Assembly (NCBI RefSeq): GCF_000027125.1
Contig: NC_017626.1
Length of the DNA stretch: 64,000 nt
Direction: 5' to 3' (one strand)
DNA from: Escherichia coli 042
GTDB lineage: Bacteria; Pseudomonadota; Gammaproteobacteria; Enterobacterales; Enterobacteriaceae
Part shown: piece after piece, positions 21,094 to 49,685 of the stretch
Numbering within the stretch: the first letter of the stretch is position 1
How the letters are laid out: the number at the start of each line of letters is the position of its first letter
Position numbers and translations under genes: made by a program
Notes under the pieces: generated by a model
The model's input: only the letters and a program-made list of their open reading frames with translations
Told to the model about the DNA's origin: nothing
Databases searched by the model: none

Positions 21094-21378
21094 ATGCCTT
21101 TAGCAGCCAAACTCACCGACAAAGGCACCCAGCACGACGGTTATTACGAGACCGTCATCACCGCCGGGTCATCCACCGTCTTTATCGATGGTCTTCCCGC
21201 AGCCCGTCAGGGAGATCCGCTGACGCCGCATGCTAAACCGAAGCATCCCCCTCATCCCCGTAAAATCGCCAGAGGTTCTTCAACCGTCTTTATTGACGGC
21301 CTGCCCGCCGCCAGAAGCGGTGATGCTGTTGACTGCGGCGGCGTGGTTATTGGTGGCGGTACGGTAAATATAGGCTGA
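21094..21378 (+). CDS. PAAR-repeat protein (T6SS spike-tip)
   Basis: 94 aa; duplicated SSTVFIDGLPAAR(Q/S)GD motif typical of PAAR; strong AGGAGG RBS; 18 nt upstream of vgrG. Confidence 0.75.
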   Translation: MPLAAKLTDKGTQHDGYYETVITAGSSTVFIDGLPAARQGDPLTPHAKPKHPPHPRKIARGSSTVFIDGLPAARSGDAVDCGGVVIGGGTVNIG

Positions 21379-21396
21379 TATGTCTGAGAGGTATTT

Positions 21397-23802
21397 ATGT
21401 CCTTAAAAGGTCTTCGCTTTACGCTGGAGGTTGACGGCCAGGAGCCGGACACCTTTGCAGTGGTGAATTTCAGGTTAATCCAGAACCAGTCATATCCGTT
21501 TGTGATGAGTGTGGATGTTGCCAGCGACTCTTTTATGCAGACGGCGGAGATGCTGCTGGAGAAGAAGGCGACACTGACCATCTGGCAGGGCGCAGTGGCG
21601 CAGCGTTATGTCACCGGCGTGGTGGCGGGTTTTGGCATGCAGGAGAATAACGGCTGGCAGATGCGTTATCACCTGCGTATTGAGCCGCCGTTATGGCGGT
21701 GCGGGCTGCGGCAGAACTTTCGTATCTTCCAGCAGCAGGATATCCGGACGATATCGGCCACGTTACTGAACGAGAACGGCGTCACGGAGTGGACGCCGCT
21801 GTTTTATGAGGACCATCCGGCGCGGGAGTTCTGTGTCCAGTACGGGGAGTCGGACCTGGCGTTTCTGTCCCGGCTGTGGGCGGAGGAGGGTCTTTTCTTC
21901 TTTGAGCGGTTTGCGGCGGACAGTCCGGAGCAGAAGCTGACGCTGTGCGACGATGTGGCGGGGCTGTCACAGGCGGGGGAGTTTCCGTTTAACCCGGACA
22001 CATCGGCAGGTGCGGAGACGGAGTGTGTCAGTATGTTCCGTTATGAGGCGCATGTCCGCCCGTCATCGGTGCAGAGCCAGGATTACACCTTTAAGGTGCC
22101 GGACTGGCCGGGGATGTATGAGCAGCAGGGTGAGAACCTGAACGGACAGCTGGAGCAGTATGAGATATTTGATTATCCGGGAAGGTACAAGGATGAACAG
22201 CACGGCAAGGATTTCACGCTGTACCAGATGGAGAGCCTGCGCAGTGATGCGGAAAAGGCCACAGGGCAGAGTAATTCGCCGAAGCTGTGGCCGGGAACGC
22301 GGTTTATGCTGACGGGGCATCCGCAGAAGATGCTGAACCGTGAATGGCAGGTGGTACAGAGCATACTGTCAGGAAACCAGCCGCAGGCGCTGCACGGCAG
22401 CCAGGGAAAGGGAACCACGCTGGGCAATCAGTTAGAGGTGATACCGGCGGACCGGACGTGGCGTCCACGGCTGCAAAACAAACCGAAGGTGGACGGGCCA
22501 CAGAGCGCCATCGTCACCGGTCCTGCGGGAGAGGAAATCTTCTGCGATGAACATGGACGGGTACGGGTGAAGTTCCACTGGGACCGTTATCACGGGATGA
22601 CGGAGGCGAGTTCATGCTGGGTGCGGGTATCGCAGGCGTGGGCGGGGCCGGGGTTCGGTAACCTGGCGATACCACGGGTGGGTCAGGAGGTGATAGTGGA
22701 CTTCCTGAACGGCGACCCGGACCAGCCGATAATCATGGGGCGGACGTACCATGAGGACAACCGTTCGCCGGGCGACCTGCCGGGAACGAAGACGCAGATG
22801 ACCATCCGGTCAAAAACCTATAAAGGAAGCGGATTTAACGAGCTGCGGTTTGAAGACGCCACCAGTAATGAGCAGGTGTATATCCATGCCCAGAAGAACA
22901 TGGATACGGAGGTGCTCAACGACCGGACAACGGATGTGAAACATGACCATACGGAAACCATCGGGAACGACCAGAAGATAACGGTGGTGAAGGGGCAGAC
23001 GGTTCAGGTCGGGACCAGAAAAGAAGGGGGCCACGACCAGAGTATCACGGTGGCGAACGACCGGTGCATCACGGTACGTAATGACCAGACGCTGCAGGTG
23101 ACGAATGACCGGACGGTGAGCGTGAGTAATGATGACGGCCTGTACGTCAGAAATGACCGTAAAGTGACGGTGGAAGGGAAGCAGGAGCATAAGACGACGG
23201 GGAACCATATCAGTCTGGTGGAGGGAAAGCACAGCCTGGTGGTGAAGGGGGACCTGGCGAGGAAGGTGAGTGGCGCGCTGGGGATAAAGGTGGACGGGGA
23301 TATCGTGCTGGAGAGCAGCAGCCGGATAAGCCTGAAGGTGAGTGGCTCGTTTGTGGTCATCCATTCAGGGGGCGTGGACATCGTCGGGCCGAAAATCAAT
23401 CTCAATAGCGGCGGTAGTCCGGGGACGCCGGTGCCGGCGCTGCAACCGGCGGTGCTGAAGACACTGGGGGATGAGAAGAGTGGTGATGGCAGTGATTCCG
23501 GAGAAGAAAATGAAGACTCTGGAGGGAACTGCGTGACCGGAAGTGGTGGTGATGATCGAGGTGACGATGAGGATGAACCTGAAAAATATACTCTCCAGTT
23601 CCATTTTACAGACGATGACGGGATACCGTATTCAGAAACCCGCTACATTGCCTTCTTTGAGGATGGCACGCAGACCCGCGGAGAAACGGATGAAGAGGGG
23701 TATACAGAGCGTTTTTTTGTATCTAGCAAACATGAAATTAAAGTGAAGTTGTTATTTGCGAATGATGATTTTCTCTCAATGGAAGGACACTATGGACGAT
23801 AA
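21397..23802 (+). CDS. vgrG: Type VI secretion spike protein VgrG with acidic linker and C-terminal extension domain
   Basis: 801 aa; N-terminus MSLKGLRFTLEVDGQEPDTFAVVNFRL…IWQG…RIFQ matches VgrG gp27/gp5 core; C-terminal repeat-rich beta-helix; Gly/Asp/Glu-rich linker then ~70 aa terminal domain. Confidence 0.85.
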   Translation: MSLKGLRFTLEVDGQEPDTFAVVNFRLIQNQSYPFVMSVDVASDSFMQTAEMLLEKKATLTIWQGAVAQRYVTGVVAGFGMQENNGWQMRYHLRIEPPLWRCGLRQNFRIFQQQDIRTISATLLNENGVTEWTPLFYEDHPAREFCVQYGESDLAFLSRLWAEEGLFFFERFAADSPEQKLTLCDDVAGLSQAGEFPFNPDTSAGAETECVSMFRYEAHVRPSSVQSQDYTFKVPDWPGMYEQQGENLNGQLEQYEIFDYPGRYKDEQHGKDFTLYQMESLRSDAEKATGQSNSPKLWPGTRFMLTGHPQKMLNREWQVVQSILSGNQPQALHGSQGKGTTLGNQLEVIPADRTWRPRLQNKPKVDGPQSAIVTGPAGEEIFCDEHGRVRVKFHWDRYHGMTEASSCWVRVSQAWAGPGFGNLAIPRVGQEVIVDFLNGDPDQPIIMGRTYHEDNRSPGDLPGTKTQMTIRSKTYKGSGFNELRFEDATSNEQVYIHAQKNMDTEVLNDRTTDVKHDHTETIGNDQKITVVKGQTVQVGTRKEGGHDQSITVANDRCITVRNDQTLQVTNDRTVSVSNDDGLYVRNDRKVTVEGKQEHKTTGNHISLVEGKHSLVVKGDLARKVSGALGIKVDGDIVLESSSRISLKVSGSFVVIHSGGVDIVGPKINLNSGGSPGTPVPALQPAVLKTLGDEKSGDGSDSGEENEDSGGNCVTGSGGDDRGDDEDEPEKYTLQFHFTDDDGIPYSETRYIAFFEDGTQTRGETDEEGYTERFFVSSKHEIKVKLLFANDDFLSMEGHYGR

Positions 23803-24583
23803 TAATCAAACTTCTGGACAACCAAAGCCAGAGCCAGAAGAATGTGTGAAAGAGCAAAAAATAACTGATCATTTTAAAATAATGATTGATAAGGCTCGTA
23901 AGGCACAAAAGTTGGTTTTGATAAAAAGAGCAGATGATCTTTTGAGATGGGGAGCACAGGAGGAATATGATTTCAGTAAGATCTTTGGTGTTAAAGGAAA
24001 TAAGGAGGTTAATATAAGAAAATATGGACATAATACAGGTAGGCGCATGAATGCTAGATTTCTTATGATGGATGGTGTGAGAAGATTAATGATTATAGCT
24101 AATGATTTAACAATGAGCAGTTTTATAAATTATACAGGTTGTAATGAATTTGCAGCATTCGTCAGCCCAAGTAAGGATATGCCCTATATAATTAACATAG
24201 GCGCAAAATTTGAGTATAGAGATGGCAAAAAAAATCCAGTAACGGGAAAGGATTCTCATGTTGCTACTTTATGTCATGAAATGTCTCATATTCAGTGGTA
24301 TTATGGGGATAATAAAAAAGGTGGTATGTGGTCACAGGATTATACAACTACTGATAAATATTCAACGTGCAAAGAGGATGAAGTTTCATATGACGAACAT
24401 ATCCGTATTGCAACTAAACTGATCTCTAAACAAAAAGATCAAATATTCGAGAATGCATATAACATAGAAAGATATTTTGAAATAAGATTAATTGAAAGTG
24501 AGATAGACTCGATTAATGATGAAATATTAAGCAATTCAGTTAAGAAAAAAATAGCGGAATTAGAAAAAGCACTTCTCCATTAA
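23792..24583 (+). CDS. Candidate T6SS cargo effector with HExxH zinc-metallopeptidase-like motif
   Basis: 264 aa from ATG at 23792, overlapping the vgrG stop by 11 nt; GGAAGGA RBS; HEMSH at 24275-24289; ~30% GC by eye; no family recognised. Confidence 0.5.
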   Translation: MDDNNQTSGQPKPEPEECVKEQKITDHFKIMIDKARKAQKLVLIKRADDLLRWGAQEEYDFSKIFGVKGNKEVNIRKYGHNTGRRMNARFLMMDGVRRLMIIANDLTMSSFINYTGCNEFAAFVSPSKDMPYIINIGAKFEYRDGKKNPVTGKDSHVATLCHEMSHIQWYYGDNKKGGMWSQDYTTTDKYSTCKEDEVSYDEHIRIATKLISKQKDQIFENAYNIERYFEIRLIESEIDSINDEILSNSVKKKIAELEKALLH

Positions 24584-24606
24584 CTAATAAGTCGAGAAAT
24601 ATATTA

Positions 24607-25428
24607 ATGCTGCAAGCTATAAAAAAAATCATAATAATGACAATCGTAAATATTATATTTTTCTATTCCTTTCAATCGACTGCGGATGAAATGGTTTTAA
24701 TAAAAAAATACGGGTTTGGGCTTGAGAGAGATATCAAAGGAAGGCCATTAATTTATCCTATCGAAAATTATGATGAGTGTAAGAAAAAATGCAATCATAT
24801 GAATTATATAGCGGATGTCAATGCTCAATTAGCTATGAGTAAAAAAAATAACAGGATTTTTGCTAACATAACCTTTACTAACAATAGCTCTACCACGTAT
24901 TTTTTTTCTAAATATTACCTACCTATGAAAGTAAAAGATGGAAAAGGAGATGAATATGATGCGATATGCAAAAAACCATTCAGAATCAACTCTGGGAATA
25001 TCACGTTGGACTACTTAGGTGGTTCATGTCCTTTTGAAATTAATACGAATCCTGAACGGTGGAATACTATTAAACCAGGTCGTAGTTTTTTGTTGAGTAT
25101 AACCTTAAATGATATGTATGCCTTTATACCAGGAGATAATTATTATTTTATAAAATCATCTGGCTATAAATTTGTTAATGACAAGTGGTTTACACTCAAA
25201 TCAATCAATAATATTTTTCTTTATTTTTTAAATTTAAAAATTAATTGTGCTGATGATTTTTTTGATATTAATAATTTTACTACATGTGATAATTTGTTAT
25301 TAGATGAAAAAAAACACTTTTTTATTAATCAGTTATGGGCAATTGAGGATGAAAAAAATTCTATTTACGTCACCCCTGATGAAATTTCTATAAGTATAGA
25401 CGGCGATAACTTAAAGTTGCCATATTAG
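24607..25428 (+). CDS. Candidate cognate immunity protein (periplasmic, signal-peptide-bearing)
   Basis: 273 aa, AT-rich; N-terminal hydrophobic segment IIIMTIVNIIFFYSFQSTA; several Cys; directly downstream of the effector candidate. Confidence 0.45.
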   Translation: MLQAIKKIIIMTIVNIIFFYSFQSTADEMVLIKKYGFGLERDIKGRPLIYPIENYDECKKKCNHMNYIADVNAQLAMSKKNNRIFANITFTNNSSTTYFFSKYYLPMKVKDGKGDEYDAICKKPFRINSGNITLDYLGGSCPFEINTNPERWNTIKPGRSFLLSITLNDMYAFIPGDNYYFIKSSGYKFVNDKWFTLKSINNIFLYFLNLKINCADDFFDINNFTTCDNLLLDEKKHFFINQLWAIEDEKNSIYVTPDEISISIDGDNLKLPY

Positions 25429-25447
25429 GAATCTGTGAAAGAACAAG

Positions 25448-25936
25448 GTGCGCCGCTTTTTTGTACTAAATAATTCGCATTTTAGTCACGGCAGAGAAGA
25501 AATCCATCTTCATATTGTTTGCGATGTCCCTGATGAACTTATTGATTTCACGTTTGAATGGAAAGGTCAGAAGAAATTATGCGTGGCAGTCTCCTTTTGG
25601 TCAATAATAGCAGAACAAAAGAAAGAGCCAGAAATGACGGTCAGATATTATATCAGTTCTGCTGATTTAACCGCAAAAAAGTTCGCCACAGCGATACGAA
25701 ATCACTGGCACGTGGAGAATAAGCTGCACTGGCGTCTGGACGTGGTAATGAACGAAGACGACTGCAAAATAAGAAGAGGAAACGCCGCAGAATTATTTTC
25801 AGGGATACGGCACATCGCTATTAATATTTTAACGAATGATAAGGTATTCAAGGCAGGGTTAAGACGCAAGATGCGAAAAGCAGCTATGGACAGAGACTAC
25901 CTCGCGTCAGTCCTTGCGGGGAGCGGGCTTTCGTAA
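25448..25936 (+). pseudogene. ISAs1-family (H-repeat-associated) transposase, C-terminal fragment
   Basis: C-terminal ~140 aa resemble H-repeat-associated proteins ([30 protein letters not shown]…); N-terminal two-thirds absent. Confidence 0.7.
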
Positions 25937-26044
25937 TCTTGCCCTGGCGATCGAATAGCGCAGATGACGGTGCTCTAAATTTGAATCTAATAAGCCGGTG
26001 TTATTTTTCATCCACTATTAAAATCTTGACACAACGAGGCAACA

Positions 26045-29585: not shown

Positions 29586-29660
29586 ATGTCAGGTTGCCGG
29601 ATGCGGCGTAAACGCCTTATCCGGCATACATAGACCTGATAAGCGAAGCGCATCAGGCAA
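29586..29660. repeat. REP (repetitive extragenic palindrome) units between nhoA and yddE
   Basis: GCCGGATGCGGCGTAAACGCCTTATCCGGC … GCGCATCAGGC palindromic units. Confidence 0.7.
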
Positions 29661-44226: not shown

Positions 44227-44240
44227 TTGATTTCGCGCAA
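44227..44240 (+). promoter_or_regulatory. Possible FNR half-site region in fdnG promoter
   Basis: TTGAT-TTCG-CGCAA resembles TTGAT-N4-ATCAA, ~65 nt upstream of the fdnG ATG. Confidence 0.3.
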
Positions 44241-44304: not shown

Positions 44305-47300
44305 ATGGACGTCAGTCGCAGACAATTTTTTAAAATCTGCGCGGGCGGTATGGCTGGAACAACGGTAGCGGCATTGGGCTTTGCCCCGAAGCAAGCACTG
44401 GCTCAGGCGCGAAACTATAAATTATTACGCGCGAAAGAGATCCGTAACACCTGCACATACTGTTCCGTAGGTTGCGGGCTATTGATGTATAGCCTGGGTG
44501 ATGGCGCGAAAAACGCCAGAGAAGCGATTTATCACATTGAAGGTGACCCGGATCATCCGGTAAGCCGTGGTGCGCTGTGCCCGAAAGGGGCCGGTTTGCT
44601 GGATTACGTCAACAGCGAAAACCGTCTGCGCTACCCGGAATATCGTGCGCCAGGTTCTGACAAATGGCAGCGCATTAGCTGGGATGAAGCATTCTCCCGT
44701 ATTGCGAAGCTGATGAAAGCTGACCGTGACGCTAACTTTATTGAAAAGAACGAGCAGGGCGTAACGGTAAACCGTTGGCTTTCTACCGGTATGCTGTGTG
44801 CCTCCGGTGCCAGCAACGAAACCGGGATGCTGACTCAAAAATTTGCCCGCTCCCTCGGGATGCTGGCGGTAGACAACCAGGCGCGCGTCTGACACGGACC
44901 AACGGTAGCAAGTCTTGCTCCAACATTTGGTCGCGGTGCGATGACCAACCACTGGGTGGATATCAAAAACGCTAACGTCGTGATGGTGATGGGCGGTAAC
45001 GCTGCTGAAGCGCATCCCGTCGGTTTCCGCTGGGCGATGGAAGCGAAAAACAACAACGATGCAACCTTGATCGTTGTCGATCCCCGTTTTACGCGTACCG
45101 CTTCTGTGGCGGATATTTACGCACCTATTCGTTCCGGTACGGACATTACGTTCCTGTCTGGCGTTTTGCGCTACCTGATCGAAAACAACAAAATCAACGC
45201 CGAATACGTTAAGCATTACACCAACGCCAGCCTGCTGGTGCGTGATGATTTTGCTTTCGAAGATGGCCTGTTCAGCGGTTATGACGCTGAAAAACGCCAG
45301 TACGATAAATCGTCCTGGAACTATCAGTTCGATGAAAACGGCTATGCGAAACGCGATGAAACACTGACTCATCCGCGCTGTGTGTGGAACTTGCTGAAAG
45401 AGCACGTTTCCCGCTACACGCCGGACGTCGTTGAAAACATCTGCGGTACGCCAAAAGCAGACTTCCTGAAAGTGTGTGAAGTGCTGGCCTCCACCAGCGC
45501 GCCGGATCGCACAACCACCTTCCTGTACGCGCTGGGCTGGACGCAGCACACCGTGGGTGCGCAGAACATCCGCACCATGGCGATGATCCAATTGCTGCTC
45601 GGTAACATGGGTATGGCTGGTGGCGGCGTGAACGCATTGCGTGGTCACTCCAACATTCAGGGCCTGACCGACTTAGGTCTGCTCTCAACCAGCCTGCCGG
45701 GTTATCTGACGCTGCCGTCAGAAAAACAGGTTGATTTGCAGTCGTATCTGGAAGCGAATACGCCGAAAGCGACGCTGGCTGATCAGGTGAACTACTGGAG
45801 CAACTATCCGAAGTTCTTCGTTAGCCTGATGAAATCTTTCTACGGTGATGCTGCACAGAAAGAGAACAACTGGGGCTATGACTGGCTGCCGAAGTGGGAC
45901 CAGACCTACGACGTCATCAAGTATTTCAACATGATGGATGAAGGCAAAGTCACCGGTTATTTCTGCCAGGGCTTTAACCCGGTTGCGTCCTTCCCGGACA
46001 AAAACAAAGTGGTGAGCTGCCTGAGCAAGCTGAAGTACATGGTGGTTATCGATCCGCTGGTGACTGAAACCTCTACCTTCTGGCAGAACCACGGCGAGTC
46101 GAACGATGTCGATCCGGCGTCCATTCAGACTGAAGTATTCCGTCTGCCTTCGACCTGCTTTGCTGAAGAAGATGGTTCTATTGCTAACTCCGGTCGCTGG
46201 TTGCAGTGGCACTGGAAAGGTCAGGACGCGCCGGGCGAAGCGCGTAACGACGGCGAAATTCTGGCGGGTATCTACCATCATCTGCGCGAGCTGTACCAGG
46301 CCGAAGGTGGTAAAGGCGTAGAACCGCTGATGAAGATGAGCTGGAACTACAAGCAGCCGCACGAACCGCAATCTGACGAAGTAGCTAAAGAGAACAACGG
46401 CTACGCGCTGGAAGATCTCTATGATGCCAATGGCGTGCTGATTGCGAAGAAAGGTCAGTTGCTGAGTAGCTTTGCGCATCTGCGTGATGACGGTACAACC
46501 GCATCTTCTTGCTGGATCTACACCGGTAGCTGGACAGAGCAGGGCAACCAGATGGCTAACCGCGATAACTCCGACCCGTCCGGTCTGGGGAATACGCTGG
46601 GATGGGCCTGGGCGTGGCCGCTCAACCGTCGCGTACTCTACAACCGTGCTTCGGCGGATATCAACGGTAAACCGTGGGATCCGAAACGGATGCTGATCCA
46701 GTGGAACGGCAGCAAGTGGACGGGTAACGATATTCCGGACTTCGGCAATGCCGCGCCAGGTACACCAACCGGACCGTTTATCATGCAGCCGGAAGGGATG
46801 GGACGCCTGTTTGCCATCAACAAAATGGCGGAAGGTCCGTTCCCGGAACACTACGAGCCAATCGAAACGCCGCTGGGCACTAACCCGCTGCATCCGAACG
46901 TGGTGTCTAACCCGGTTGTTCGTCTGTATGAACAAGACGCGCTGCGGATGGGTAAAAAAGAGCAGTTCCCGTATGTGGGTACGACCTATCGTCTGACCGA
47001 GCACTTCCACACCTGGACCAAGCACGCGTTGCTCAACGCAATTGCTCAGCCGGAACAGTTTGTGGAAATCAGCGAAACGCTGGCGGCGGCGAAAGGCATT
47101 AATAATGGCGATCGTGTCACTGTCTCAAGCAAGCGTGGATTTATCCGCGCGGTGGCGGTGGTAACGCGCCGTCTGAAACCGCTGAATGTAAACGGTCAGC
47201 AGGTTGAAACGGTGGGTATTCCAATCCACTGGGGCTTTGAGGGTGTCGCGCGTAAAGGTTATATCGCTAACACTCTGACGCCGAATGTCGGTGATGCAAA

Positions 47301-47352
47301 CTCGCAAACGCCGGAATATAAAGCGTTCTTAGTCAACATCGAGAAGGCGTAA
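44305..47352 (+). CDS. fdnG: Formate dehydrogenase-N alpha subunit (selenoprotein; in-frame UGA = Sec at 44890-44892)
   Basis: Track ORFs 44305-44892 and 44941-47352 are in the same frame, split only by TGA; Tat signal RRQFFK; sequence around Sec …ARV-U-HGPTVASLAPTFGRGAMTN. Confidence 0.9.
44893..44935 (+). promoter_or_regulatory. SECIS stem-loop directing selenocysteine insertion in fdnG
   Basis: Immediately 3' of the in-frame UGA; …CGGTAGCAAGTCTTGCTCC… can form a hairpin. Confidence 0.6.
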
Positions 47353-47364
47353 GGGGGCGAACAG

Positions 47365-48249
47365 ATGGCTATGGAAACGCAGGACATTATCAAAAGGTCC
47401 GCAACTAACTCCATCACGCCGCCTTCTCAGGTGCGTGATTACAAAGCAGAAGTCGCGAAACTTATCGACGTTTCCACCTGTATCGGTTGTAAAGCCTGTC
47501 AGGTGGCGTGTTCGGAGTGGAACGACATCCGTGATGAAGTGGGGCACTGCATCGGGGTTTACGATAACCCCGCCGATCTGAGCGCCAAGTCCTGGACGGT
47601 GATGCGCTTTAGCGAAACCGAACAGAACGGCAAGCTGGAGTGGCTGATCCGTAAAGACGGCTGTATGCACTGTGAAGATCCGGGCTGCCTGAAGGCGTGC
47701 CCGTCTGCTGGTGCAATCATTCAGTACGCTAACGGGATTGTCGATTTCCAGTCGGAAAACTGCATCGGCTGTGGTTACTGCATTGCCGGGTGTCCGTTTA
47801 ATATTCCGCGCCTCAACAAAGAGGATAACCGGGTATATAAATGCACGCTCTGCGTCGATCGCGTCAGCGTCGGCCAGGAACCGGCTTGTGTGAAAACCTG
47901 TCCGACCGGGGCTATCCACTTCGGCACCAAGAAGGAGATGCTGGAGCTGGCGGAACAGCGCGTGGCGAAACTGAAAGCGCGTGGTTACGAACATGCTGGC
48001 GTCTACAACCCGGAAGGGGTCGGTGGTACGCACGTTATGTACGTGCTGCATCACGCCGATCAGCCGGAGCTGTATCACGGTCTGCCGAAAGATCCGAAGA
48101 TCGACACCTCGGTAAGCCTGTGGAAAGGCGCGCTGAAACCGCTGGCAGCGGCTGGCTTTATTGCCACTTTTGCCGGGTTGATTTTCCACTACATCGGTAT
48201 TGGCCCGAATAAGGAAGTGGACGATGACGAGGAGGATCATCATGAGTAA
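47365..48249 (+). CDS. fdnH: Formate dehydrogenase-N beta subunit (4Fe-4S)
   Basis: 294 aa with four CxxCxxCxxxCP clusters and C-terminal TM anchor. Confidence 0.9.
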
Positions 48250-48895
48250 GTCGAAAATGATTGTGCGCACCAAATTTATTGATCGCGCCTGTCACTGGAC
48301 CGTGGTGATTTGCTTCTTCCTGGTGGCGCTGTCCGGGATTTCGTTCTTCTTCCCGACGCTGCAATGGCTGACGCAAACCTTCGGTACGCCGCAGATGGGA
48401 CGCATTTTGCACCCGTTCTTCGGCATTGCGATTTTCGTCGCGCTGATGTTTATGTTTGTGCGTTTTGTGCATCACAACATCCCGGATAAGAAAGATATTC
48501 CGTGGCTGTTGAACATTGTCGAAGTATTAAAAGGCAATGAGCACAAAGTGGCGGATGTCGGTAAGTACAACGCCGGGCAAAAGATGATGTTCTGGTCGAT
48601 CATGAGCATGATTTTCGTGCTGCTGGTGACCGGGGTGATTATCTGGCGTCCGTACTTTGCGCAGTACTTCCCGATACAGGTTGTCCGTTATAGCCTGCTG
48701 ATCCACGCGGCTGCGGGTATCATCCTGATCCACGCCATCCTGATCCATATGTATATGGCATTCTGGGTGAAAGGATCGATTAAAGGGATGATCGAAGGAA
48801 AGGTGAGCCGTCGCTGGGCGAAGAAACACCATCCACGCTGGTATCGTGAAATCGAGAAGGCAGAAGCGAAAAAAGAGAGTGAAGAAGGGATATAA
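48242..48895 (+). CDS. fdnI: Formate dehydrogenase-N gamma subunit (cytochrome b556)
   Basis: 217 aa from ATG at 48242 overlapping the fdnH stop; 4 TM. Confidence 0.9.
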
Positions 48896-48949: not shown

Positions 48950-49080
48950 TGTAGACAACGTAGGCTTTGTTCATGCCGGATGCGGCGTGACGCCTTATCC
49001 GGCCTACAAACCCTTCAAATCCAATAGATTGCAGTGAACTTGTAGGCCTGATAAGCGTAGCGCATCAGGCAATGTTGCGT
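48950..49080. repeat. REP element cluster downstream of fdnI
   Basis: Inverted copies GCCGGATGCGGCGTGACGCCTTATCCGGCCTACAA … GTAGGCCTGATAAGCGTAGCGCATCAGGC. Confidence 0.7.
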
Positions 49081-49122
49081 TTGTCATCAGTTCTAAATGG
49101 CGCTTTATAAAGTGCCATTTTT

Positions 49123-49407
49123 TTATTGCGTAACCAGACGGCGTAATCGCGACACATCCACCGTTTTTTCAGCCTCTGCCAGACTCCAGGCGTTTTGCAG
49201 ATTCAGCCACATTTGCGGCGAACTGCCGATCACCACGGAAAGTTTAATTGCCATTTCTGGCGTCAAAGCTGCTTTTCCGGTCAGCAATCGGCTTGCCGTT
49301 GAGGGCGCAATTTCCATTGCTCTGGCAAACTCGCGCAGGCTGACATTAAGTTCGTCCAGTGATTCCTGAATAATGTCCCCCGGGCGGGGATGATTGGCCA
49401 TTTTCAT
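49123..49407 (-). CDS. yddM: HigA-like antitoxin (XRE-family HTH)
   Basis: 94 aa with HTH ([22 protein letters not shown]); immediately downstream of and 1-nt overlapping a RelE/HigB-like ORF. Confidence 0.8.
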
Positions 49408-49685
49408 CAGTGATAGTCCTCGTAATCCAGTATGTATGCATCGCCATTGACGAATTCAAATGTGATTCGCCAGTTGCCCGAGACAGATATCGCCCAAATT
49501 CCATCGCGATCGCCGCTTAACGGGTGTAGTCGGTAACCGGGCATATCGATATCAGCAAGACAGCTTGCCGCATCAATCACAGCAAGTCGATGGCGTAATC
49601 GTTTGACTTGCGTCGGTATAACGCCGGAGGTTTTGCCGAGAAGAAACAAGTCACGCAATCCCTTGTGTCTGAAATTCATTATCAT
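49407..49685 (-). CDS. HigB-like toxin (RelE/ParE superfamily mRNA interferase)
   Basis: 92 aa small basic protein upstream of the HTH antitoxin; toxin-first order typical of HigBA; ATGA start/stop overlap. Confidence 0.65.

Follow-up and report, generated by a model that had tools for sequence, protein, structure and literature searches.

Selenocysteine codon 196 and the downstream SECIS hairpin of fdnG in a 64-kb Escherichia coli window

The region 44305-47352 of the window, by which we mean the whole 64-kb stretch of DNA that was analysed, is almost certainly a single E. coli fdnG gene in which the UGA at 44890-44892 does not act as a stop but is recoded to selenocysteine 196, directed by a SECIS hairpin located at 44893-44935 (all features described here lie on the + strand). 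Because this is one selenoprotein gene, the open reading frames 44305-44892 and 44941-47352 need to be merged. The selenocysteine codon and the SECIS element of fdnG are already known, and the case is an ordinary one of textbook programmed stop-codon recoding that brings no new biology. Its practical value in genome scans lies in annotation: TGA 44890-44892 must not be mistaken for a frameshift, pseudogene or gene boundary.

Identity and continuity of the fdnG gene

Translation of 44305-47352 yielded 1016 codons, with stops at codon 196 and at the terminal codon only, i.e. a single CDS for the 1015-residue alpha subunit of formate dehydrogenase-N with selenocysteine at codon 196. The assignment of the gene to fdnG, made earlier from the sequence, was confirmed at several levels. 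Over 3.2 kb the DNA shows 100% identity with the annotated fdnG of E. coli strain 118UI and others, and identity with most strains lies at 95-99%. The encoded protein matched the TIGR01553 profile with 1624.2 bits (cut-off 814), residues 2-1014 falling on profile positions 1-1009. Both operon partners of fdnG are present downstream, namely fdnH, encoding the iron-sulfur beta subunit (47365-48249; TIGR01582, 482 bits), and fdnI, encoding the cytochrome b gamma subunit (48242-48895; NF007558, 486 bits), each also annotated in RefSeq. The fdnG gene was found in 5425 of 5426 complete E. coli genomes. The gene encodes the catalytic subunit of the nitrate-inducible formate dehydrogenase-N, and its codons 1-33 (44305-44403), in whose translation the motif S-R-R-Q-F-F-K was read, presumably encode a twin-arginine (Tat) signal peptide of 33 residues. 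The 118UI annotation was applied as it stands from position 29610 on and with an offset elsewhere; an IS1397 difference breaks the colinearity of the window and this strain upstream of 29610.

The program-made list of open reading frames contains two entries for this region, 44305-44892 (195 amino acids, closed by the TGA at 44890-44892) and 44941-47352 (803 amino acids, in the same frame), and ATG 44941 is formally a possible start for the second. Such a list would fit a TGA that is a genuine stop, with two polypeptides of about 195 and 803 amino acids or a pseudogene as the outcome, but we regard this explanation as highly improbable. In RefSeq, fdnG of a strain with 100% identity across the 3.2-kb stretch is one CDS, and the fdnG product could be aligned without a break through residue 196 to chain A of PDB entry 1KQF (1015 residues), one chain that spans both parts. 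1KQF is the solved structure for the K-12 protein. Moreover, the 48 nt from the TGA to ATG 44941 encode in frame the conserved HGPTVASLAPTFGRGA motif, and TGA is present at 120 of 120 proteobacterial homologous sites among the matches listed and is retained in essentially all E. coli genomes, unlike what is seen in pseudogenes. The SECIS_3 match described below also argues against a genuine stop. Translation, the single RefSeq CDS and the 1KQF chain all support the claim of the first-pass annotation that the two fdnG frames are one gene with an in-frame TGA at 44890-44892. Its remark that automated ORF callers split such genes holds for the mechanical ORF list but not for the NCBI pipeline, which handled the gene correctly.

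The UGA at codon 196 (44890-44892) is the sole internal in-frame stop and was aligned to the non-standard residue 196 of 1KQF. It also aligns with the equivalent non-standard residue of the selenocysteine-containing Desulfovibrio formate dehydrogenases 1H0H and 6SDR, and H-G-P follows directly. Selenocysteine 196 is the active-site residue of formate dehydrogenase-N and a ligand of its molybdenum, and Berg et al. (1991, as cited in PMC13188914) are said to have reported a selenium-containing, full-length FdnG of about 110 kDa in K-12. A UHxP motif has been given for the selenocysteine site (PMC13188914). The search pattern by which the 120 homologous sites were retrieved also permitted TGC and TGT at this codon, which precedes the conserved peptide; no homologue with either cysteine codon occurred among the 120 matches listed, which left no control set lacking the UGA.

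The SECIS element and its folding

The segment 44887-44945 is a full match to the Rfam family RF01989 (SECIS_3), covering model positions 1-59 of 59 with 84.3 bits (gathering score 63) and an E-value of 1.3e-19 for the 6 kb searched or 1.4e-18 for the whole window. No other Rfam match in the 64 kb reached its gathering score. The first-pass annotation had placed a sequence able to form the SECIS hairpin after the TGA, within 44890-44935. These coordinates correspond to the outermost Rfam consensus pair, since positions 4 and 49 of the Rfam numbering fall on 44890 and 44935, and the proposal is borne out by the SECIS_3 match, by identity with the fdoG SECIS and by the register shared with fdhF. 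The fdhF-type family RF01988 (SECIS_2) scored the window element at 28.8 bits, below its gathering score of 70; the element is of the fdnG/fdoG subtype, not of the fdhF subtype.

Folding of 44890-44935 gave a single hairpin at 44893-44935, composed of a lower helix, an internal loop and an upper stem-loop, with a minimum free energy (MFE) of -12.7 kcal/mol, and its pair probabilities were 0.8-0.9 when up to 100 nt of flanking sequence was included. In the MFE structure the 5' strand of the lower helix (44895-44902) pairs with the 3' strand (44927-44935), where G44933 is bulged; this 3' strand is defined by pairing in the homologues as well. The upper stem-loop GGUAGCAAGUCUUGCUCC (44904-44921), which alone folds with -4.5 kcal/mol, occupies positions 15-32 counted from the U of the UGA and matches by register the minimal SelB-binding element of fdhF. 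It carries a U at 44906, which both the MFE structure and the Rfam consensus leave unpaired as a bulge, and an apical loop G-U-C at 44912-44914.

The same structure agrees with the constraints of the bSECIS consensus model, which were taken from PMC13188914. The in-frame UGA (44890-44892) lies within the coding region with the hairpin (44893-44935) directly downstream, and the loop of 3 nt (GUC), for which the model allows 3-9 nt, caps an upper stem whose 7 bp, for which it allows 4-16 bp, are interrupted by a single bulged U; opening of the closing A-U pair would widen the apical loop to 5 nt (AGUCU). The model also expects a G at loop position 1 or 2, with G or U as the usual next base, and the loop here begins with G44912 and U44913. 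The spacing from the UGA to the apical loop is 19 nt (44893-44911; 16-37 nt in the model), and the MFE of -12.7 kcal/mol lies below the limit of -7.5 kcal/mol.

RNA folding of 44893-44935, which had been suggested as a check on the first reading, thus recovers the hairpin, yet one that is not unusually stable, and it is a weak test on its own. A shuffle test of the folding energy gave z = -1.37, with 21 of 200 shuffles equal or better, and 15.4% of 1001 in-frame 43-nt windows along fdnG were at least as stable as the hairpin. So ordinary an energy favours the view that conserved coding sequence folds into this hairpin by chance, the conservation coming from the active-site peptide and not from an RNA signal, and the peptide UHGPTVASLAPTFGRGAMTNHW is itself highly conserved. 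Folding energy alone is no evidence for the hairpin beyond chance; the covariance model, whose score is far over threshold, and the comparative data are. When a bacterial SECIS element lies within coding sequence, folding energy has no discriminating power, in contrast to covariance models and synonymous-site covariation.

Constraint at synonymous positions

The 120 homologous sites among the matches listed come from Enterobacterales, Pseudomonas, Burkholderiales, Rhizobiales and others, and they were picked by a peptide-derived pattern that fixes the first and second codon positions, so that third positions alone are informative. A constraint was observed there that is not imposed by the encoded protein. 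In 107 of 107 distinct 110-mers among the matches listed, the Thr codon, although four-fold degenerate, was ACG and the Ser codon was AGT, and U44913, the third base of the Ser codon, was T in each of these 107 although any base was permitted there. The bulged U44906 was likewise invariant in the homologue alignment, at a second codon position fixed by the search pattern.

Pairing was followed in 54 distinct homologues among the matches listed. The upper helix was 100% paired across them, and the pairs 21-33 and 24-30 (Rfam numbering) covaried at synonymous third positions, changing by compensation only and with no mispairs: 21-33 was G-C in 29, A-U in 18, G-U in 6 and C-G in 1, and 24-30 was A-U in 23, C-G in 23 and G-C in 8. 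The observed covariation score was reached by none of 500 shuffles, and controls in slid registers fell to 24-54% paired. These data, the covariance-model score and the third positions shared by fdnG and fdoG (see below) make a chance fold of a conserved peptide-coding sequence exceedingly unlikely, and they argue for an RNA signal.

The two paralogues fdnG and fdoG share 74.8% nucleotide, 55.9% third-position and 76% amino-acid identity, and their longest identical run is 71 nt, from 44887 (the codon preceding the UGA) to 44957. Every third position of the element is identical between them, the background being 56%. The 71-nt identity might stem from gene conversion between the two genes instead of selection on the RNA, in keeping with the fact that the run goes 22 nt past the hairpin, but we consider this doubtful. 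The overhang comprises 7 codons; 2 of them (ATG and TGG) lack synonymous alternatives, another 3 are two-fold codons with biased usage, and the probability that the 5 variable third positions are identical by chance is about 0.56^5 = 0.06. In addition, the 59-mer of the window element is common to 48 of the 120 sites among the matches listed, in several genera, and recent conversion within one genome is insufficient because the identity extends across genera. The loci behind these 48 sites (L005-L123) include Photorhabdus, Providencia, Citrobacter, Enterobacter and Yersinia, the carriers being counted together and not broken down by genus.

Gene conversion would touch the 71-nt identity only and is compatible with a SECIS element. 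An extended constraint 3' of the hairpin, which the same 71-nt run had suggested, was rejected, as third positions there vary freely across species.

The lower helix behaves differently from the upper one in that two pairing registers exist, as judged from the 54 distinct homologues among the matches listed, in which the MFE register was 88.7% paired and the Rfam register 83.1%; neither is perfect in all lineages. In the enterobacterial version, to which the window element belongs, positions 12, 45 and 48 are A, U and C, and pairing is best when the helix is shifted by one base and a G is bulged, as in the MFE structure of the window element. The bases at these positions are C, C and U in most other lineages, whose helix follows the consensus register of Rfam. 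That register was discarded for the window element, as it leaves the pairs 8-48 (A-C) and 12-44 (A-G) mismatched. The switch of register might tune the efficiency of selenocysteine insertion or unwinding by the ribosome, but this seems improbable when set against neutral synonymous drift.

Predicted decoding and comparison with known elements

By analogy with the established fdhF and fdnG systems, the upper stem-loop (44904-44921) would offer its bulged U (44906) and the loop G and U (44912-44913) to the C-terminal domain of SelB, and SelB would bring GTP and selenocysteyl-tRNA(Sec), the selC product charged via SerRS, SelA and SelD. The ribosome would then melt the lower helix as the UGA enters the A site, the tethered SelB would deliver Sec-tRNA(Sec) in competition with release factor 2, and translation would proceed for 819 codons beyond the UGA. 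SelB binding, the actual insertion of selenocysteine and the competition with release factor 2 are thus predicted for fdnG from those two systems. The 64-kb window contains no tRNA genes, and selA, selB, selC and selD lie outside it; the sel machinery of the source genome is accordingly presumed from the species, in which selC (tRNA-Sec) is present in 5424 of 5426 complete genomes.

The closest counterpart is fdnG of K-12, which is the same gene with the same codon position and the same operon (fdnGHI after yddG). The window gene differs from it in nothing of substance and represents the allele of another E. coli strain; relative to the 1KQF sequence, FdnG of the window shows only two differences in the aligned parts, E127D and L342F.

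Alignment with the fdoG and fdhF elements had also been proposed with the first reading. The 46-nt UGA-plus-hairpin segment of K-12 fdoG is identical base for base to that of fdnG, with the same SECIS_3 score of 84.3 bits, and the selenocysteine codon is codon 196 in both genes. Their products differ, fdoG being the paralogue that codes for the aerobic/constitutive FDH-O and fdnG coding for FDH-N.

The SECIS element of fdhF is the experimentally dissected prototype, and the Böck laboratory reportedly worked on the fdhF and fdnG hairpins and on SelB. In K-12 fdhF, as in fdnG, the hairpin begins directly after the UGA, and G15, G16, the bulged U17, G19-C20-A21 and the loop bases G23-U24-C25 lie at equal distances from the UGA in the two genes. 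The fdnG element is in register with the fdhF-type minimal element, its upper stem-loop beginning 11 nt past the UGA, with U17 at 44906, G23 at 44912 and U24 at 44913. In fdhF the determinants for SelB are G15, G16, U17, G23 and U24 (PMC8659212). The upper stem of fdnG is one base pair longer than that of fdhF (A22-U26), which leaves a loop of 3 nt (GUC) versus 4 nt (GGUC) in fdhF, and the sequences of the lower helix and the internal loop are unlike those of fdhF. The gene fdhF, whose product is the cytoplasmic FDH-H with selenocysteine at codon 140 instead of codon 196, falls into the Rfam family SECIS_2, whereas fdnG and fdoG fall into SECIS_3.

Reading frame and surroundings of fdnG

The mechanical ORF list contains for fdnG an ORF of 195 aa (44305..44892) and one of 803 aa in the same frame (44941..47352), and the window sequence carries a TGA at 44890-44892. 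When 44305-47352 was translated in a single frame, the only stops among its 1016 codons were codon 196 and the final one; the two ORFs are thus one frame broken by a single TGA, which bears out the single interrupted gene proposed by the first-pass annotation. RefSeq has one CDS that in window terms spans exactly 44305-47352, with yddG upstream on the opposite strand and fdnH and fdnI downstream. Several E. coli genomes have an annotated fdnG that is 100% identical to the 3.2-kb stretch, and 5425 of 5426 complete genomes of the species contain the gene. The protein, with codon 196 entered as X, scored 1624 bits against TIGR01553 (FDH-N alpha; cut-off 814), and the next two ORFs matched FDH beta (TIGR01582, 482 bits) and FDH-N gamma (NF007558, 486 bits).

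That the TGA is a real stop, or the region a pseudogene, can be excluded for practical purposes. The N-terminal 195 residues of FdnG and a 299-residue stretch across codon 196 (residues 162-460) each align end to end with one and the same 1015-residue chain of PDB 1KQF, whose residue 196 is a non-standard residue. In addition, the sequence separating the TGA from the following ATG carries a conserved in-frame motif. In the alignment column of residue 196, Desulfovibrio enzymes deposited as "selenocysteine-containing" also have a non-standard residue, with H-x-P after it, and PMC13188914 gives U-H-x-P as the motif of this selenoprotein family. Finally, genome contigs were scanned with the back-translated peptide [U/C]HGPTVASLAPTFGR, leaving third positions free and allowing TGA, TGC or TGT as first codon. 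Among the matches listed, which came from Enterobacterales, Pseudomonas/Stutzerimonas, Burkholderiales, Rhizobiales, Thiobacillus, Photobacterium and others, TGA was retained at all 120 sites (120/120). For annotation, this means that the two ORFs should be merged into one selenoprotein gene.

In the parts aligned, FdnG differs from the K-12 protein in 1KQF at two residues, E127D (44683-44685) and L342F (45328-45330). A GTG-started ORF of 389 aa antisense to fdnG (44479-45648, minus strand) overlaps the selenocysteine site and is most likely a spurious frame inside the coding region. Upstream of the start codon at 44305, the TTGATTTCGCGCAA at 44227-44240 resembles the FNR half-consensus (TTGAT-N4-ATCAA) and may be an FNR site, which would fit the anaerobic and nitrate control of fdnG. 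The fdnI-yddM intergenic stretch (48969-49085) holds REP-type palindromes with sub-threshold Rfam matches on both strands (naRNA4, 31.5 bits versus 59.5; ES036, 30.1 versus 37.6), and just 3' of the fdn operon the annotation of a colinear strain predicts a HigA-family antitoxin (yddM) and RelE/ParE-family toxin pair (49123-49685, minus strand). Despite a 100% identical fdnG, the window is not colinear with E. coli strain 118UI (L124): it has an inverted IS1397-like copy at 3-1178, and the IS1397 located between nhoA and yddE in 118UI (L124 28178-29609) is missing at about 29610. A putative small type VI secretion islet with an ISAs1 transposase fragment lies between yncG and yddH (about 21094-25937) and would encode a PAAR protein, TssI/VgrG, an M35 peptidase and hypothetical proteins; its coordinates are those of the L124 annotation offset by +1435, as inferred from a 99.4%-identical colinear 118UI sequence.

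Folding and covariation of the hairpin

A hairpin-forming sequence had also been claimed to follow the TGA, and 44893-44935 does fold into a single hairpin composed of a lower helix, an internal loop and an upper stem-loop. For 44890-44935 the MFE is -12.7 kcal/mol, and 44893-44935 gives the same structure; with as much as 100 nt added to each side, mean pair probabilities remain 0.8-0.9. The hairpin thus survives the stability check suggested in the first-pass annotation, but stability is a test of little power here, because z was only -1.37 relative to dinucleotide shuffles (21 of 200 folded as well) and 15.4% of 1001 in-frame 43-nt windows along fdnG were at least as stable; by folding energy alone, the hairpin is not beyond chance. 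The covariance-model test was decisive: Rfam RF01989 (SECIS_3) matched 44887-44945 over its full length with 84.3 bits (gathering score, 63; E-values of 1.3e-19 for a 6-kb search and 1.4e-18 for the window as a whole), and it was the only Rfam family at gathering score within the 64 kb.

The possibility that the hairpin is a chance fold of a stretch coding for a conserved peptide is excluded by the synonymous sites. In all 107 distinct 110-mers among the matches listed, the four-fold-degenerate Thr codon is ACG, whose G is position 15 at the base of the upper stem (U of UGA = 1), and the Ser codon is AGT, whose T is loop U24, whereas neighboring third positions show 0.7-1.8 bits of entropy. 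In the 54 distinct 59-mers among the matches listed (alignment A1, Rfam numbering), 100% of upper-helix cells are paired. Pair 24-30 is A-U in 23, C-G in 23 and G-C in 8, and pair 21-33 is G-C in 29, A-U in 18, G-U in 6 and C-G in 1; since both join third codon positions, they are not dictated by the protein. None of 500 column shuffles reached the observed covariation score or percentage paired, and pairing fell to 24-54% when the 3' partners were slid by 1-3 columns. First and second codon positions were set by the search pattern, the sequences share ancestry, and third positions are influenced by genomic GC content. GC content could favor A-U versus G-C, but C-G/G-C alternation with zero mispairs cannot be produced by it.

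Registers of the lower helix

The lower helix is less uniform than the upper one. In the Rfam consensus register the fdnG sequence mispairs at 8-48 and 12-44, and its MFE register (44895-44902 with 44927-44935) is offset by one base and leaves G44933 as a bulge; the former is 83.1% paired and the latter 88.7% across the A1 homologues. The synonymous bases at Rfam positions 12, 45 and 48 are A12, U45 and C48 in Enterobacterales and C12, C45 and U48 in most other lineages; two alternative registers, linked to these correlated changes, occur across Proteobacteria (A1 columns 7-16 and 41-49). Such variation is consistent with published accounts, in which modulating efficiency is the lower part's only role and the ribosome has to unwind it (PMC13188914, PMC8659212). 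All aspects of the element were known before, the register variation being the sole feature here with any residual novelty.

Comparison with fdoG, fdhF and the bSECIS model

According to established knowledge (summarized in PMC13188914), the upper stem-loop would be bound by SelB·GTP·Sec-tRNA(Sec) and the lower helix unwound by the ribosome; with UGA in the A site, SelB would hand over Sec-tRNA(Sec), and the hairpin would refold once the ribosome had passed. The 64-kb window contains no tRNA gene and does not encode the selenocysteine machinery; among complete E. coli genomes, 5424 of 5426 carry selC.

Comparison elements were taken from K-12. The SECIS of fdoG is identical to that of fdnG over 46 nt from UGA and scores equally against SECIS_3, within genes sharing 76% of protein residues, 74.8% of nucleotides and 55.9% of third codon positions. 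The longest identical run, 71 nt (44887-44957; next longest, 35 nt), begins one codon before UGA and exceeds the hairpin 3' end by 22 nt, or 7 codons; because two of these have no synonym, the overhang is probably due to chance or codon bias. An extended signal 3' of the hairpin was rejected, as third positions of the overhang vary freely across species (107 distinct 110-mers among the matches listed). Part of the local identity of the two genes could stem from gene conversion between them, but conversion cannot account for an identical 59-mer at 48 of 120 sites in many genera among the matches listed.

In contrast, the fdhF SECIS matches SECIS_2 instead of SECIS_3, and the fdhF-type model gave only 28.8 bits in the window, which places the element in the fdnG/fdoG subtype. 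The following bases of fdhF are nonetheless found at the same positions in fdnG (U of UGA = 1): G15, G16, U17, G19-C20-A21 and G23-U24-C25. The SelB-binding determinants of fdhF, a 17-nt upper stem-loop 11 nt from UGA with bulged U17 and loop G23 and U24 (PMC8659212), correspond by register to 44904-44921, 44906 and 44912-44913, respectively; unlike fdhF, fdnG has one extra closing pair (A22-U26) that leaves a 3-nt loop. Both the observation and the interpretation of the first-pass annotation are correct. The fdnG element also fits all constraints of the bSECIS model as published (PMC13188914), with an apical loop of 3 nt (3-9 required) starting with G and then U (required: G at loop position 1 or 2, followed by G or U), an upper stem of 7 bp (4-16), a UGA-to-loop spacing of 19 nt (16-37) and an MFE of -12.7 kcal/mol (-7.5 or lower).
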